From: Acidobacteriota bacterium | GTDB taxonomy: Bacteria > Acidobacteriota > UBA4820 > DSQY01 | Assembly (NCBI GenBank): GCA_049967655.1 | Contig: JBMFSH010000006.1 | Span: 57,791-121,790 of the forward strand | DNA: 64,000 bases | Direction: 5' to 3' | Part shown: in pieces, positions 1-5,481 of the stretch | Layout: each line of letters starts with the position of its first letter | How positions within the stretch are numbered: position 1 is the first letter of the stretch | Translations under genes and position numbers: made by a program | The notes under the pieces: model-generated | Told to the model about the DNA's origin: nothing | Database searches by the model: none | The model's input: only the letters and a program-made list of their open reading frames with translations

Positions 1-155
1 TGCAGAGCCTGGATACCCAGCGTGTTCTGGGCGGCTATGGCGGTGACGACGGCCGTCCCGTAGACCCGGAAGGCTTGAAAGGTCTTGAGGTCTGCCGGGA
101 CGCCCGTGGCCCCAGAGGCATCGAAAGCCGAGATGCTGAGCACGGTCTTGTTCAT
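1..155 (-). CDS. thiD: Hydroxymethylpyrimidine/phosphomethylpyrimidine kinase-like protein, N-terminal part (runs off window)
   Basis: Own translation from ATG at 155: MNKTVLSISAFDASGATGVPADLKTFQAFRVYGTAVVTAIAAQNTLGIQAL, resembling the ThiD N-terminus (D.SG..G..ADLKTF...TA..AQNT). AGGAGG RBS upstream. Confidence 0.8.
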   Translation of the reverse strand, partial: MNKTVLSISAFDASGATGVPADLKTFQAFRVYGTAVVTAIAAQNTLGIQAL

Positions 156-184
156 TGCCCCTCTTCCTCCTGCCAGGCGGGGAG

Positions 185-289: not shown

Positions 290-319
290 TTGACAGGGGG
301 GGGGCGGCGGGTGTAGAGT
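290..319 (+). promoter_or_regulatory. sigma70-type promoter of the lipoprotein/Ldt locus
   Basis: TTGACA-18 nt (containing G9)-TAGAGT. Confidence 0.55.
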
Positions 320-499
320 TCATGGCCGTGAGAATCCCCCGAACATACGGGGGGGCAGGGTGTGAGAACTTATGTTCTTGTGCGCTCCCGAGGTCGACCC
401 AGAGAATCCAGCCCCCCGGCGCGAAATGAGCCTACAAGTTTCGGCATAAGATGGCTTATGCCGGTAGTCCGGTTTTTGCTTGGAAAGGAGAGAAGGAAA

Positions 500-1126
500 A
501 TGAGAAAGCTCACCGCTAGCCTCCTGGTTCTGGCCCTTGCTGCGCTGGTTGCCTGCGCCAAGCCGCCGCAGCAGCAGATCGACGCCGCCAAGGCCGCCCT
601 CCAGGCCGCCAAGGCCGCCCAGGCCGACGTTTACGCCCCCGACGCCCTCAAGGCCGCCGAGGACAAGGCTGCCGCCCTGGACACTGAACTCGCCGCTCAG
701 CAGAGCAAGTTCTTCAAGAGCTACAAGGTGGCCACCCAGCTGACCACCGAGTTGCAGCAGCTGGCCGACACGGCCAAGCAGGACGCCATCGCCGGCAAGG
801 CGAAGGCCAAGGCCGATGCTGAAGCTTCCATCACCGCCGCCGACGCTTCCGTCACCGCCGCACGCGAAGCCCTGAAGACCGCCCCCAAGGGCAAGGGCTC
901 CAAGGCTGATCTTGAAGCCATGACCAAGGACGTCGACGATGCCGCCGCGGCCATCGAGACCGCCAAGTCCGACGCCACCGCCGAGAAGTACATGGAAGCC
1001 AAGACCACGGCCGACAGCGCCAAGGCTAAGGCCGACAACGTCGTCCAGCAGGTCGAGCAGGCCAAGGCACTGAAAAAGAGCAGCATCCCTGCTCACAAGG
1101 CCCCGGCCCACAAGGGAAAGAAGTAA
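500..1126 (+). CDS. Ala/Lys-rich coiled-coil lipoprotein (DUF4398-like)
   Basis: Signal peptide with lipobox LVAC, AGGAG/AAGG RBS, helical Ala-rich repeats (AKAAQADVYAPDALKAAED), basic tail ending in KGKK. Confidence 0.85.
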   Translation: MRKLTASLLVLALAALVACAKPPQQQIDAAKAALQAAKAAQADVYAPDALKAAEDKAAALDTELAAQQSKFFKSYKVATQLTTELQQLADTAKQDAIAGKAKAKADAEASITAADASVTAAREALKTAPKGKGSKADLEAMTKDVDDAAAAIETAKSDATAEKYMEAKTTADSAKAKADNVVQQVEQAKALKKSSIPAHKAPAHKGKK

Positions 1127-1142
1127 CCGTTTTCCCGCGAAG

Positions 1143-1175
1143 AAAAAGGGGGCGGCGTTGCCGCCCCCTTTTTTT
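1143..1175 (+). terminator. Intrinsic (bidirectional-type) terminator
   Basis: AAAAA-GGGGGCGGC-GTT-GCCGCCCCC-TTTTTTT directly after the stop codon. Confidence 0.85.
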
Positions 1176-1186
1176 GGGGATCTGGT

Positions 1187-2338
1187 GTGAAGAAGCGGAA
1201 AACGACCCGTAGAATCATCCTGTTGATCATCCTGTGCGCCATCATCTGGTCCGCTTCGGAGTGGCTGGTCCCTCTCCTGGACGGGAGCCAATCCCCGCCC
1301 CTGGACCCCACGGGGAAGGGAGCCGAGACCCTCCTCTTCGCCGCCCGGCGGGAGGGCGCCGAGCAGCTCTATCCGCAGCGATTTATGGCGTGCCAGGACG
1401 CTCTTAAGGAGGCACGCTTCGAAACCAACCTCCAGCTGGCTTCCCAGTGGGGGACCAGAGATTTCGTCCGGCCCCAGCGCCTCCTGGACGAAGCCCAGGC
1501 CCAAGCCTTCGGTCTTTGGAAGGACGCCGTTGAGCACAGGCGCGAGGTGAGACCGGAGGCGGAGGCCATGATCGCCAGGGCCGACGACTCGCTTCAAAGA
1601 AGCGAGGAGGTGGCCGACCTCAGCCGCCAGGACTATTACACGCGAGGGCACCTGGCCACGGCATTCATGCTGCTTCACCAAGCCCAGTCCTACTATGGCG
1701 CTGGCCAGTACGACAGGGCCCTCTCCGCCGCAAGCAGCTCTCTGGAGAACAGCAGCAGGGCCCTCAGCCGGTCTCGCGAATACCTGGAGCGCTTCGATGA
1801 CCCCCACCATCTTCGGCTGTGGGAGTTGTGGATCCGCGAGGCGGTCGCCTCATCGAGGAGCACCGGGATTGCCTTCGTGGTGATCAAGGAGAAACACAGG
1901 CTGGATGTCTACAAGAACGGCCGTCTCGCCCAGTCGTTCCCCGTCGATCTCGGTGCCAATTCCGTGAGCCAGAAGGAGAGGGCCGGAGACAGAGCCACTC
2001 CCGAGGGGCTGTACCGCATCATCCGAAAGAAGGGCCGGGGGGCCACCAAGTACGGGCTCGCGCTCCTCCTCAACTACCCGAACGAAGAGGACCGCCGGCG
2101 GTTCGCCGAGATGAAGGCCCGTGGGCAGTTGACGCGCCGCACTGGCATCGGTGGCCTCATCGAGATACACGGAACGGGGGGCAGGGGCTATGATTGGACC
2201 GACGGATGCATAGCCCCGAATGACGAGAACATGGAAAGGCTGTATCATGAGGCGGTGATCGGGACGGTGGTGGCCATCGTGGGCAGCGACGGCAGCGGAG
2301 GCCCGATCCGATCGGCTCTGATGGAAACGAGGCGATGA
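1187..2338 (+). CDS. L,D-transpeptidase (YkuD) with N-terminal membrane anchor and helical stalk
   Basis: K..GDRATPEG.Y, LLLNYPN and IEIHG...WTDGCIA catalytic His/Cys motifs. Confidence 0.88.
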   Translation: MKKRKTTRRIILLIILCAIIWSASEWLVPLLDGSQSPPLDPTGKGAETLLFAARREGAEQLYPQRFMACQDALKEARFETNLQLASQWGTRDFVRPQRLLDEAQAQAFGLWKDAVEHRREVRPEAEAMIARADDSLQRSEEVADLSRQDYYTRGHLATAFMLLHQAQSYYGAGQYDRALSAASSSLENSSRALSRSREYLERFDDPHHLRLWELWIREAVASSRSTGIAFVVIKEKHRLDVYKNGRLAQSFPVDLGANSVSQKERAGDRATPEGLYRIIRKKGRGATKYGLALLLNYPNEEDRRRFAEMKARGQLTRRTGIGGLIEIHGTGGRGYDWTDGCIAPNDENMERLYHEAVIGTVVAIVGSDGSGGPIRSALMETRR

Positions 2339-3069
2339 GCGACAACGACACCGATCACTCTTCTCCCCTTTTGCGCGGCATCGAATCGACCAAGAAGGAG
2401 CACGCGAGGCGTGTCCGCCGCACCGTCCTGGTCCTCCTCATCGGCACCGGTCTGCTTTGCGCGGCCGTCGTCCTCTTCGTGCTGTCGACGGGATACGGCT
2501 ACGCGGACCTGAATGCGGCCTACATCTCCCGGCACAGCATGGAGGTGCCTCAGACGGGGCCGGTACTGCCCGAGAAGATCCTGGATATGGCCGAAAAGAA
2601 ACTGGACCAAGTGAGGCCCAAGGGCATTTTCGTGGTGGTGGACCACATTCGCAACCACCTCTACCTGCGCGACGGAGACAAGGTCATCCTCGATGCCCTC
2701 TGCTCGGCCGGAGCTGGAACTTTGCTGACCGATCCGAAATCGGACCGCCACTGGGTATTCGACACACCCGTGGGCCGTTTCTTCGTCCGGGACAAGCGCA
2801 AGGATCCCACTTGGACGGCGCCCGATTGGGACTACATCGAATCGGGCGAACCCTTTCCCAAGAACTATGCGGACCGAGTGCAGGAGGGGATGCTGGGTGA
2901 GTACGCCCTGGATTTGGGCGGAGGACCGTCGGGCTACATGATCCATGGCACGCTCTACACCCGCCTCCTGGGACGCAATGTGAGCCACGGGTGCGTAAGG
3001 GTCGGGCGGGACGACCTCCGCATCATCTGGCAGAAGGTGCCCGTCGGGGCCACGGTGTTCATGTACTGA
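2335..3069 (+). CDS. L,D-transpeptidase (YkuD/ErfK family), membrane anchored
   Basis: TP.G.F, P.W..P and YMIHGT...G..VSHGCVR motifs; ATGA overlap with the upstream gene. Confidence 0.9.
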   Translation: MSDNDTDHSSPLLRGIESTKKEHARRVRRTVLVLLIGTGLLCAAVVLFVLSTGYGYADLNAAYISRHSMEVPQTGPVLPEKILDMAEKKLDQVRPKGIFVVVDHIRNHLYLRDGDKVILDALCSAGAGTLLTDPKSDRHWVFDTPVGRFFVRDKRKDPTWTAPDWDYIESGEPFPKNYADRVQEGMLGEYALDLGGGPSGYMIHGTLYTRLLGRNVSHGCVRVGRDDLRIIWQKVPVGATVFMY

Positions 3070-3752
3070 TGAAAAAACGACTGCTTTCTCTCGCATTCCT
3101 GGCGATCTCCGTGGTTGCCCTGGCCGGGGTCGTTCGGGTGCTGGCCCAGGCCGAGCCTTCGCAGGAGCCCCTGCCCCTCCGCGCCGCCCTGGCCGAACAG
3201 GAGGCCAGGCTGGCCACCTCGAACACCTTCTACCTCGAACTGGATCTCTCCCATCCTGCCATCAAGCTCTGCCATTCGGGAGTGGCCCTTGCTACCTATC
3301 CGATCGACTCCCTCAAGGTGGGGTATCCACGCATCTTCTTCTTCCCCCGGATGCATGAGGGGAAATGGATCGGCGAAATCTGGACCGGGGGCCACCTCAT
3401 ACCCCCGAAGATCATCAACCGGATCCGCATCACGCCGGGAAGCGTGCCTTCGGCTGAAATCGCGGTTCCCGCCTTGATTCCGCCGACCATGTCCGATCTG
3501 ATCCCCGTTCCACCCGTCTACACCATCGTTTTCGACGGCGGGAGAGTCATCCGCGTAACTCTGGTCGGAAAGATCACCGGAGCCGTCGGCCAGCCTGACA
3601 AGGAGCGGGGTTGGTGGGCGGACTTCTTGGCGGGTCTGGGCGTCCGGAGGGCGGACTCACTCCGCATCAGCGCCAGCATGCCGGCCAACGACGGGGCCGC
3701 CCTCTTCCGGTCCTTTCCCGACAAGCCTCCAGAACTCCTGATCCTACCGTAG
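3069..3752 (+). CDS. Secreted protein, probable inactive YkuD-like fold
   Basis: TGATG overlap; signal peptide; FYLELDLSHPAIKLCHSGVALATYPI resembles the first YkuD strands; no HG...GC motif. Confidence 0.65.
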   Translation: MKKRLLSLAFLAISVVALAGVVRVLAQAEPSQEPLPLRAALAEQEARLATSNTFYLELDLSHPAIKLCHSGVALATYPIDSLKVGYPRIFFFPRMHEGKWIGEIWTGGHLIPPKIINRIRITPGSVPSAEIAVPALIPPTMSDLIPVPPVYTIVFDGGRVIRVTLVGKITGAVGQPDKERGWWADFLAGLGVRRADSLRISASMPANDGAALFRSFPDKPPELLILP

Positions 3753-4538
3753 GCCCCGGAGCTCAAAGAGGCGAGTCCAAACGGCCGGCTCGACCTGGTT
3801 CGGCCTGGCCAGGCGATCGACCTCCACGCGTTCCAGGATCGCCGGCCAGCTTTCCACCGCATAACCCAGCGAGCGTCCCACCGCGCCCATGGCCTTCCGA
3901 GGCGAGGCGAAGGCCATCCGCAAGAAGGACCAGAAGCGCTCCTGCTCGTTCGGAGGAAGGCTTGCCCGCTCCTTCGGATCGAAGCGGCAGACGGCGGAGA
4001 TCACCTTCGGGCAAGGCCTGAAGGCGCCTGGGGGGACCGAGAACAGCAGGCGGCGTTTCCACCAGCCGTCCGTCCAGACGGCGAGGGGGCCGTATCCCTC
4101 CCCTCCCGCGCTCGCACAGAACTTCCAGGCCACCTCCCGCTGGAGCATGACCACGGCGGAAGCCACTTCGCCCGGGCGCGAGAGGATTCTCCGCAAGATC
4201 TCCGTCCCCGCGTTGTAGGGAAGGTTGCCCACCACCAGCCACCTTGCGCCGCTCCCCGCCAGCTTCGGCAGGTCGAGCTCGCGTGCGTCCCCAAGCACTA
4301 CGCGGAGGTCGGGCCGCTCTCGCGCGAGGGCCGCCGCCAGCTCCCGGTCCACCTCCACGGCCCACGTGGGAAGGTGCAGGTCGAGGAGACCCGACGTGAG
4401 CGCGCCGCCTCCCGGCCCGATCTCGAGGAGGGCGGTGGCCGAAGTGGAGGCCTCCCTCGCGGCCCCAAGGATTCGCTGAATCCAGACGGAATCCACGAGG
4501 AAATGCTGGCCCAGCGACTTCTTCGCCCGCGCGAGCAT
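3744..4538 (-). CDS. rsmA: 16S rRNA adenine dimethyltransferase
   Basis: KKSLGQHFL, EIGPG.GALT, GNLPYN, MLQREVA and F.P.PKV.S motifs. Confidence 0.93.
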   Translation of the reverse strand: MLARAKKSLGQHFLVDSVWIQRILGAAREASTSATALLEIGPGGGALTSGLLDLHLPTWAVEVDRELAAALARERPDLRVVLGDARELDLPKLAGSGARWLVVGNLPYNAGTEILRRILSRPGEVASAVVMLQREVAWKFCASAGGEGYGPLAVWTDGWWKRRLLFSVPPGAFRPCPKVISAVCRFDPKERASLPPNEQERFWSFLRMAFASPRKAMGAVGRSLGYAVESWPAILERVEVDRLARPNQVEPAVWTRLFELRGLR

Positions 4539-4547
4539 GGGCCCGGA

Positions 4548-5150
4548 TCACGCGCCGTGGCGCAGGCGCTCCAGCGCCATGAAGATCTCACGGCCCACCC
4601 AGGCGTCCGTGGCGGCGTAGGAGATCTGGGCGGGGGCGAGTTCCGGCCTGCTCCAGTCCGACATCTTGGCCCGCTTGGAAACGCGGAATCCCAGCAGGCT
4701 CGCCGCGAGTCCCTTCAGGCCGTTGGCGGGGACCCCCGCCTCCGATGATAGTGTGGCGAGATCCACGAATCCCCTCGGTTCGAAGGTGTAGACCTCCTGG
4801 AGCTTCCGGACATCGTAACCGGGCGCCACGCCCACCTTCAGGACGGCCGGATCGGACAGCAGGGCCAGCACCGGCCCCAGCCGATGGAGCCTCAGGAGCT
4901 GGAAGAGATAGGCTTCGGTGCCGCTGGAGAGCTGGAGGATGGCGGGAGGGTTGACCTGCCCCTTCGCAAAGGAGGGCTTGGTCTCCGTGTCGAAGCCCAG
5001 CACTCGTTCGCGGCCGAGCCGCTCGGCCGCGGAGCCCACCTGGGCGTCCGAATGGACCAGGTAGATGCTCCCCTCGAAACGCCGGATGGGGAGTGCGTTG
5101 ATCGTCTCGGCCGTCCATTCCTGCCTGGGATCCGGTGCGGCGCCGTCCAA
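4548..5150 (-). CDS. 3'-5' exonuclease (WRN/RNase D-like DEDDy)
   Basis: LGFDTETKP and SDW....L...QI.YAATDA motifs. Confidence 0.9.
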   Translation of the reverse strand: MDGAAPDPRQEWTAETINALPIRRFEGSIYLVHSDAQVGSAAERLGRERVLGFDTETKPSFAKGQVNPPAILQLSSGTEAYLFQLLRLHRLGPVLALLSDPAVLKVGVAPGYDVRKLQEVYTFEPRGFVDLATLSSEAGVPANGLKGLAASLLGFRVSKRAKMSDWSRPELAPAQISYAATDAWVGREIFMALERLRHGA

Positions 5151-5274: not shown

Positions 5275-5481
5275 ATGAACGAGAAGGTGTTCAAGAAGAT
5301 TCGCGTCGTGGGCTGCAGCCCGGAGAGCTACCAGAAGGCCGTGGAATCGGCCGTGGTGAAGGCCGGGGCGTCGGTGCACGGTATGGCCTGGTTCGAGGTG
5401 GTGGAATTGCGCGGGGCCATCCAGGACGGCAAGACCTCCGAATGGCAAGCCACCGTGGAGATCGCATTCAAGGTGGAGTAA
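5275..5481 (+). CDS. Dodecin (flavin-binding protein)
   Basis: KVFKKI.VVG.S..S...A...A, WFEVVE.RG.I.DG and WQ.T..I.F pattern; AAGGAGG RBS. Confidence 0.92.
   Translation: MNEKVFKKIRVVGCSPESYQKAVESAVVKAGASVHGMAWFEVVELRGAIQDGKTSEWQATVEIAFKVE

Follow-up and report, generated by a model that had tools for sequence, protein, structure and literature searches.

A conserved four-gene cassette of a helical lipoprotein and YkuD-type proteins from Acidobacteriota and other phyla: a candidate reversible membrane-peptidoglycan tether

This study concerns a four-gene cassette in a 64,000-nucleotide stretch of contig JBMFSH010000006.1 from an Acidobacteriota bacterium (assembly GCA_049967655.1); the whole stretch is called the window below. 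The cassette consists of a lipoprotein gene (gene 1), two genes for YkuD-type enzymes (genes 2 and 3), and a gene for a predicted YkuD-fold protein without catalytic residues (gene 4). The cassette is real and conserved, and it is undescribed within the literature searched. I regard it as an even bet that the cluster joins a membrane covalently and reversibly to peptidoglycan through an internal lysine of the lipoprotein, Lys132, with the writer and the eraser of the link encoded alongside. A first-pass annotation of the window had suggested a tether independent of the Braun lipoprotein (Lpp), attached through its C-terminal lysine by two dedicated L,D-transpeptidases (Ldts). The co-conservation of the genes, the terminator behind gene 1, and the general idea of a tether with its own enzymes are supported, while the terminal lysine fails as the attachment site.

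I sampled 170 loci, namely 30 from a first set, 60 of the best matches in the phylum, and the 80 best of 268 pattern matches. A lipoprotein match was present in 169 of them (146 unique). Where this match was strong (at least 160 bits) and at least 3 kb lay downstream, genes 2, 3, and 4 all followed in 109 of 120 loci, so that the expected conservation of the neighbourhood with its YkuD genes was borne out. The remaining strong-match loci are one gene 2-gene 3 fusion, which would raise the count to 110, six loci without gene 2, and four with none of the three genes. The fusion (L194) was not accepted as such; it looks like a frameshift, since the end of gene 2 is broken and a hydrophobic segment lies in the interior. 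Among weaker lipoprotein matches with at least 3 kb downstream, 10 of 11 have none of genes 2 to 4. By record title, the lineages include Acidobacteriota, Aminicenantes, Nitrospirae (Nitrospirota), Zixibacteria, Ignavibacteria, Calditrichaeota, Krumholzibacteriia, and Thermodesulfobacteriota, and the nearest named relatives are Acidobacteriota metagenome-assembled genomes. Two records titled Eubacteriales (L179 and L195) hold cassettes close to those of Aminicenantes records and are probably mislabelled bins.

The same association was seen at the genome level. Across the phylum, 113 of 301 genomes match the lipoprotein profile, 77 of them at E < 1e-40. All 77 also have a gene-3 match, and 74 have a gene-4 match; the three others are a contig end and two genomes with a weak gene-4 open reading frame (ORF) in place. 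Nine genomes match gene 3 but have no strong lipoprotein match; seven of them have distant stand-alone Ldts, and two have genes 3 and 4 at contig ends.

Some loci depart from the four-gene arrangement. Three-gene loci without gene 2 are L090, L096, L099, L100, and L112, which belong to family f48, and L068, which is the second cassette of a genome also holding a full one. In family f48, the lipoprotein tails end in Arg or Gln and gene 4 is highly divergent. Genome G257 has a split cassette (L084/L206), with the lipoprotein on one contig and genes 2-3-4, without a lipoprotein upstream, on another. The distant stand-alone gene-3 relatives at L199 to L205 have signal peptides and come from one other family group; several of them adjoin genes that I take, from their translations, to be metK and an ABC1/UbiB-like kinase gene.

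Which lysine of the lipoprotein could be the acceptor? The protein of the window ends in ...KKSSIPAHKAPAHKGKK, but the conservation expected of an attaching terminal lysine was not found. Of the first homologues, 70 of 120 end in Lys; of the 129 cassette lipoproteins, 66 do so and 45 end in Arg. In the more diverse representatives (a 50% identity set of 150 rows, two shorter rows being dropped for terminal-residue counts), terminal Lys is present in 29 of 148, with Arg in 47 and Gly, Ser, and Ala also common. On a quick tree of 129 tips, the terminal-Lys state changes at least 21 times by parsimony, which gives minimum counts. There is no Lys within the last eight residues in 44 of the 148 representatives, nearly all of which have Lys132, and lipoproteins of intact loci may end in ...QQRRRR or ...SRRGR. 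The tail ranges in length from 2 to 27, and 143 of 148 representatives have a Lys or Arg inside its last five residues.

An Lpp-like attachment by the C-terminal or any tail lysine is thus highly improbable. The KK end of the window's protein would suit it, and the 66 of 129 Lys-terminal cassette lipoproteins compare with 153 of 2,423 (6%) heuristic ORFs and 26 of 122 Lys-rich ORFs of the genome; moreover, two homologues with an unrelated, non-basic tail (P0019 and P0021) are still Lys-terminal, and substitutions are tolerated in the Lpp box (PMC12274547). However, the excess over the genomic 6% results in part from a general bias, since bacterial C-termini are enriched in Lys and Arg (PMC7246954). 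More than 20% of the periplasmic proteins and lipoproteins of Escherichia coli end in Lys (PMC12274547).

The lysine that does persist is Lys132, which lies in a P-x-G-K loop. It was found in 72 of 72 score-selected cassette loci, in 118 of 119 phmmer matches, and in 148 of 150 representatives, with Arg in the two exceptions; its presence in 57 of 57 loci picked by a pattern containing Lys132 is not an independent count. The column shows no change on the 129-tip tree, as one of four such columns, and only Cys19, Pro23, and Ala188 are as invariant. At other lysines of the 150 representatives, Arg is exchanged for Lys (K130, Arg 45 and Lys 43; K73, Arg 135; K104, Lys 62 and Arg 60). The spacing from Tyr75 to Lys132 is 57 residues in 143 of 150 representatives and 122 of 129 cassette lipoproteins. 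Strict Lys over Arg in a Gly/Pro loop is the pattern that would be expected of an amine acceptor. Outside the cassette, Lys132 is present in 4 of 14 homologues, and in all four cases the genome encodes the enzymes at another place (three second copies and one split cassette). Of the 10 homologues without it, 8 belong to genomes that match neither gene 3 nor gene 4. Stand-alone second lipoprotein copies with the G-K loop lie at L081, L086, and L088 in genomes with a full cassette, and they are possible additional substrates.

The predicted fold puts the Lys132 loop at the end of a rod. The model of the gene 1 protein (81 sequences; predicted local distance difference test score, pLDDT, 91.5) is almost wholly helical, with helices at residues 24-39, 47-68, 76-126, 134-160, and 164-195. 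It is predicted to fold as two stacked three-helix bundles forming a rod of about 8 nm, with the 51-residue helix 3 (about 75 A at 1.5 A per residue) common to both bundles. Because of the helix order in this model, the lipid and the aromatic loop Q67-Y75 would lie at one end of the rod, and the 127-133 loop and the C-terminus at the other, about 7.5-8.5 nm off. Wherever a Cys stands either at the C-terminus or beside (just before) the Lys132 loop, the other one is present as well (all four such loci and all four such representatives), which is consistent with the loop and the C-terminus adjoining; the pair is a probable disulfide. In this subgroup (L077, L078, L083, and L102; P0090, P0116, P0199, P0236, P0252, and P0264), Gly131 is mostly replaced by Pro and Lys132 is retained. 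The first-pass description of the protein as nearly all Ala/Lys helix holds for the helix but not for the composition, because Ala (55) and Lys (29) make up only 44% of the 190 residues from Cys19 on, and the modelled monomer is a folded five-helix bundle rod rather than the single helix of an Lpp-type trimer.

The PF14346 (DUF4398) match of gene 1 (E 0.007, 17.3 bits) is below the cut-off of 27.9, and several homologues are tagged DUF4398. The N-terminal half resembles PA2901 (PDB 4fm3; Z 11.6, root-mean-square deviation (rmsd) 3.0, 93 aligned, 27% identity). Over the whole length, the nearest fold is the N-terminal domain of Borrelia BB0323 (Foldseek E 0.11 and TM 0.43 in the top rows), and structure comparison gave Z 9.6 with rmsd 6.6 over 156 aligned residues, below the tool's meaningful level for helical bundles. 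The LPP family (PF04728) was unmatched in the gene 1 protein and in the genome, while the E. coli positive control was detected. The lipobox Cys is present in 149 of 150 representatives, and Asp at +2 in just 4 of 130 rows. In P0124, an N-terminal rod half is followed by a TonB C-terminal domain (in a mis-called longer ORF), as though a DUF4398-like bundle may have been reused as a periplasmic spacer. A search for gene fusions among longer proteins gave two matches in 7,998 candidates, none with a YkuD, LysM, or OmpA domain, which is weak evidence.

Genes 2 and 3 both exceed the Pfam cut-off for YkuD (E 1e-18 and 2e-17) with His and Cys intact, as had been noticed at first sight, and they are the sole two YkuD matches in this 99%-complete genome. 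By its motifs, gene 3 appears to encode a transferase-type Ldt of the ErfK/YbiS type. Of 123 aligned rows, H204 is conserved in 122, C220 in 121, and R222 in 121, the rest being gaps, so that Cys+2 is Arg in every one of the 121 rows not gapped at that place. Its PDB matches are ErfK/YbiS-type Ldts, and an N-terminal hydrophobic segment is found in 113 of 123 homologues on a crude scale.

Gene 2 had been counted as a second attaching enzyme, and this did not hold; by motifs it appears to be a hydrolase-type YkuD of the DpaA/Csd6 clade in a subgroup of its own. The best PDB profile matches are DpaA, Bd1075, Csd6, and Pgp2. Cys+2 is Ala in 102, Ser in 14, and Gly in 2 of the 118 rows with a residue, and the equivalents of DpaA Lys83 (K263, 120 of 123) and Tyr109 (Y/F289, 113 of 123) are kept. 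These diagnostic features of DpaA and of LD-carboxypeptidases were taken from PMC10653827 and the DpaA preprint (10.1101/2021.02.21.432140). At the positions of DpaA Gln86, Lys130, and Tyr131, gene 2 has Ala/Ser/Glu, Gly, and Leu, and its score against the NCBIfam equivalog NF040599 (22.6 bits) does not reach the cut-off of 365. An NCBIfam match to XopF2 (E 0.043, 12.6 bits against 600) was treated as chance. The N-terminal part of gene 2 is homologous to the whole gene-1 rod (BLAST E 0.001; profile E down to 1e-17 in relatives). This rod mostly lacks the Lys loop, a Lys132 equivalent being present in 10 of 93 aligned gene-2 rods. A lipobox-like site occurs in 33 of 123 gene-2 sequences.

The kinship of gene 2 with Bd1075, Csd6, and Pgp2, together with the BB0323-like fold of the rod and the nearly universal Lys or Arg near the tail end, brings up a different explanation. 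The lipoprotein might be a non-covalent spacer whose basic tip rests on peptidoglycan, as with the BB0323 rod, and the YkuD genes might be co-regulated neighbours in shape or stress remodelling, with gene 2 as an LD-carboxypeptidase. I consider this improbable. Gene 2 has Glu in 115 of 123 rows, two residues ahead of the catalytic His, at the place of the D-Ala-pocket Trp of LD-carboxypeptidases (PMC10653827). The similarity to BB0323 is of the level given above, and loose co-regulation would leave both the gene order across phyla and the tracking of Lys132 with the enzymes unexplained.

Gene 4 is a YkuD-fold pseudo-enzyme according to its model (pLDDT 88), in agreement with the earlier remark that a YkuD-like protein without His/Cys is present. 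No Pfam or PDB sequence match was found for it, and no Pfam family occurs in more than one of 96 members. In the structural search, YkuD-fold chains fill ranks 1-19 of 48,161 (Z 7.0 to 3.9). The best match is moderate for a predicted model (Z 7.0, rmsd 3.8, 110 aligned), and the first unrelated row has Z 2.8. Nearly all Foldseek rows are YkuD folds as well (best E 0.0085), and hhalign relates gene 4 to gene 3 (E 1.5e-5 over 39 columns). The Atlas neighbours are unnamed, and the nearest named cluster, YkuD at 0.78, is a lead only. In 121 aligned rows, Cys never exceeds 24 and His never exceeds 22 in any column, so neither is conserved.

The layout of the locus agrees with the first-pass reading of a lipobox lipoprotein followed by a terminator and three coupled genes. 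The overlap of genes 2 and 3 is ATGA (2335-2338) and that of genes 3 and 4 is TGATG (3067-3071). The hairpin between genes 1 and 2 has its stem at 1148-1168 and U7 at 1169-1175; the region 1124-1190 folds at -39 kcal/mol (z -5.5), and 0 of 200 shuffles were equally stable. A simple terminator scan did not list this hairpin. Terminator-like elements lie behind gene 1 in 54 of 129 loci, behind gene 2 in 13 of 119, and behind gene 3 in 6 of 121. Upstream of gene 1, the TTGACA of the candidate promoter at 290 occupies a single place of the alignment in 21 of 29 regions, with flanks that have diverged.

If the link is covalent, the following course may be proposed. Since gene 1, with its lipobox, stands behind a conserved promoter-like site and a terminator precedes the enzymes, the lipoprotein would be abundant and the enzymes scarce. 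The anchored Ldt of gene 3 would cut D-Ala4 off a tetrapeptide stem and move the meso-diaminopimelate (mDAP) acyl group to the epsilon-amine of Lys132, and the basic tail would help keep the tip of the rod on the anionic wall. Gene 2, whose own rod copy would give it a similar height, would hydrolyse the Lys132 amide, as DpaA does for Lpp. The weakest step is gene 4, which may be a non-catalytic partner of gene 3, for example in presenting the loop. On the side of the proposal, the genome lacks an Lpp match and has two matches to the LolA family as well as a DAP epimerase. The anchoring membrane is probably the outer one; the +2 Ala of gene 1 and the LolA matches are only compatible with this location.

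The same genes could instead form an editing complex that tethers nothing. In that case, the lipoprotein would be a non-covalent scaffold or activator, the Lys132 loop would dock on gene 3, gene 4, or both to set the sites of 3-3 cross-links, and gene 2 would trim or open stems. This is the main rival, possible but rather less than evenly likely. A dedicated pseudo-enzyme suggests a protein complex, the gene-2 rod without the Lys loop indicates that a rod can be a plain spacer, and an obligate complex fits the co-occurrence data equally well. Gene 3 is, besides, the only transferase-type YkuD in the genome, which is also a caution for a dedicated attaching enzyme. On the other side, the terminator between gene 1 and the enzymes would point to unequal amounts, better suited to a substrate than to a 1:1 subunit, strict Lys over Arg would suggest chemistry more readily than a salt bridge, and distant gene-3 relatives stand alone in seven genomes without the lipoprotein.

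Further points weigh against the covalent link through Lys132. The invariance of Lys132 could come from a role at an interface or in capping a helix, and the profiles favour Lys132 slightly. The strong threshold of E < 1e-40 was chosen after a score gap was visible. Kinship among the genomes keeps them from being independent cases, and the counts carry no claim of statistical testing. A search for gene 2 in four genomes of one family that keep genes 1, 3, and 4 (two of them single-contig) found it in none, and therefore the core is genes 1, 3, and 4. The absence of the Gln86 and Tyr131 equivalents from gene 2 also counts against the proposal. Outer-membrane sorting from the +2 residue is an E. 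coli rule, applied here to other phyla, and the genome has three OmpA/Pal-domain proteins over the cut-off. Finally, the reaction type of an Ldt, anchoring or 3-3, is unreadable from its lineage, and the role of LdtPae3 is itself termed tentative (PMC10434034).

A wider version of the covalent proposal is more doubtful. It would have the Ldt join a ruler-length bundle lipoprotein by an isopeptide bond through a loop lysine, with a dead YkuD paralogue as the specificity subunit and an amidase gauging height by a duplicated rod; several deep-branching diderm phyla would then have it as their chief covalent envelope tether, and DUF4398 would gain its first function.

Table 1. Features of the cassette, in positions of the window
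Feature	Position	Strand	Remark
Candidate sigma70-like promoter (TTGACA, 18 nucleotides, TAGAGT)	290..319	+	Sequence match, alignment
Shine-Dalgarno AAGGAG of gene 1	485..490	+	Comparable purine-rich element in aligned relatives
Gene 1, lipoprotein, 208 amino acids	500..1126	+	Predicted five-helix rod, N-terminal half DUF4398-like
Lipobox LVAC, Cys19, +2 residue Ala	545..556	+	Residues 16-19 of gene 1
Conserved aromatic loop Q67-Y75 (QQSKFFKSY)	698..724	+	Would be the membrane-proximal end of the rod, from helix order in the model
A-P-K-G-K132-G loop between helices 3 and 4; candidate acyl acceptor Lys132, codon 893-895	881..898	+	
Polybasic C-terminal tail	1073..1123	+	Length and Lys/Arg choice vary
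Intrinsic-terminator-like hairpin, 9 G-C pairs, loop GTT, U7	1143..1175	+	11 nucleotides ahead of the gene 2 GTG
Gene 2	1187..2338	+	N-terminal hydrophobic anchor, gene-1-homologous helical rod, hydrolase-type YkuD (K263, Y289, H328, C341, A343)
Gene 3	2335..3069	+	N-terminal hydrophobic anchor, short stalk, ErfK-like transferase-type YkuD (H204, C220, R222)
Gene 4	3069..3752	+	Exported YkuD-fold protein without conserved catalytic His/Cys (predicted pseudo-enzyme)

The cassette lies between a divergent gene upstream and an opposite-strand gene downstream, the latter presumably rsmA-like from its translation. The flanking genes at 1-157 (minus strand), 3744-5150 (minus strand), and 5275-5481 (plus strand) presumably resemble thiD, rsmA/ksgA, a 3'-5' exonuclease, and dodecin, and have no visible connection with the cassette. 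The 5' leader (320-499, about 175 nucleotides) has small hairpins, for example at 335-355 and 428-452, with conservation limited to close kin. An Rfam search of 150-1300 gave 12 matches, every one far under the gathering score. In RNA data from a single study (run X1), contigs from a close relative span 347-959 and 2232-2415, and such contigs cannot rank gene expression. The codon score of gene 1 (0.51, against 0.24-0.35 for genes 2-4) is near the upper quartile of a crude genome set and was not used as evidence.

How does the cassette compare with known systems? No paper on a cassette of writer, eraser, pseudo-enzyme, and duplicated rod was found in literature searches whose coverage largely left out subscription journals; a 2025 review of Ldts does not mention Acidobacteria, and the titles of the DUF4398 literature showed no assigned function. 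The DUF4398 protein PA2901 resembles the N-terminal half of gene 1, to which gene 1 adds a second bundle with the Lys loop. BB0323 presumably reaches peptidoglycan by its LysM domain, whereas gene 1 has no LysM. Both are tandem helical-bundle rods in envelope lipoproteins, that of BB0323 being spectrin-like (PMC12758692), yet at 12% identity and rmsd 5.5-6.6 A the likeness is not significant. Csd6, Pgp2, and Bd1075 share with gene 2 a long L1 loop Lys and Cys+2 Ala; they have the D-Ala-pocket Trp and accessory domains, whereas gene 2 has Glu and the N-terminal rod.

For a non-terminal acceptor lysine of an Ldt there is precedent in LimB of Coxiella burnetii (Lys21) and Lpg1810 of Legionella (a Lys of the C-terminal tail) (PMC12274547, PMC12729407, PMC11841132). 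They are likened here by the use of lysine and not by homology; in those papers their Ldt is unknown, whereas candidate enzymes lie beside the putative substrate here. The spacing reported for the LimB type is about 35 A, and the reach of E. coli Lpp, about 85 A (PMC12729407), is similar to that of the rod. In PMC12274547 and PMC12729407, covalent outer-membrane tethers are described only from Proteobacteria. The DpaA paper reports DpaA-like enzymes in Acidobacteria without Lpp and asks for their substrates. Within a single unit of 3.3 kb, the cassette offers candidates for the substrate, its acceptor residue, the writer, and the eraser. If the proposal is true, covalent tethering would extend to several other phyla, the Ldt responsible for an internal-lysine link would be known in one case, and there would be a portable, folded loop for attachment.

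The closest parallels are Lpp with LdtA/B/C and DpaA/LdtF/YafK in E. coli and OprI with LdtPae2/LdtPae3 in Pseudomonas aeruginosa, which likewise combine a helical lipoprotein, a transferase with Cys+2 Arg, and a hydrolase with Cys+2 Ala and Lys83/Tyr109. In contrast to the Lpp system, the enzymes here share an operon with their putative substrate and are membrane-anchored, one of them with a copy of the rod; an extra pseudo-YkuD is present, and the phyla are different. Gene 1 has no sequence homology with Lpp, a five-helix rod is predicted in place of a single-helix trimer, and the terminal Lys is unconserved. If the link is covalent, the cassette would be a separately evolved counterpart of the Braun lipoprotein; it is not a member of the Lpp family.

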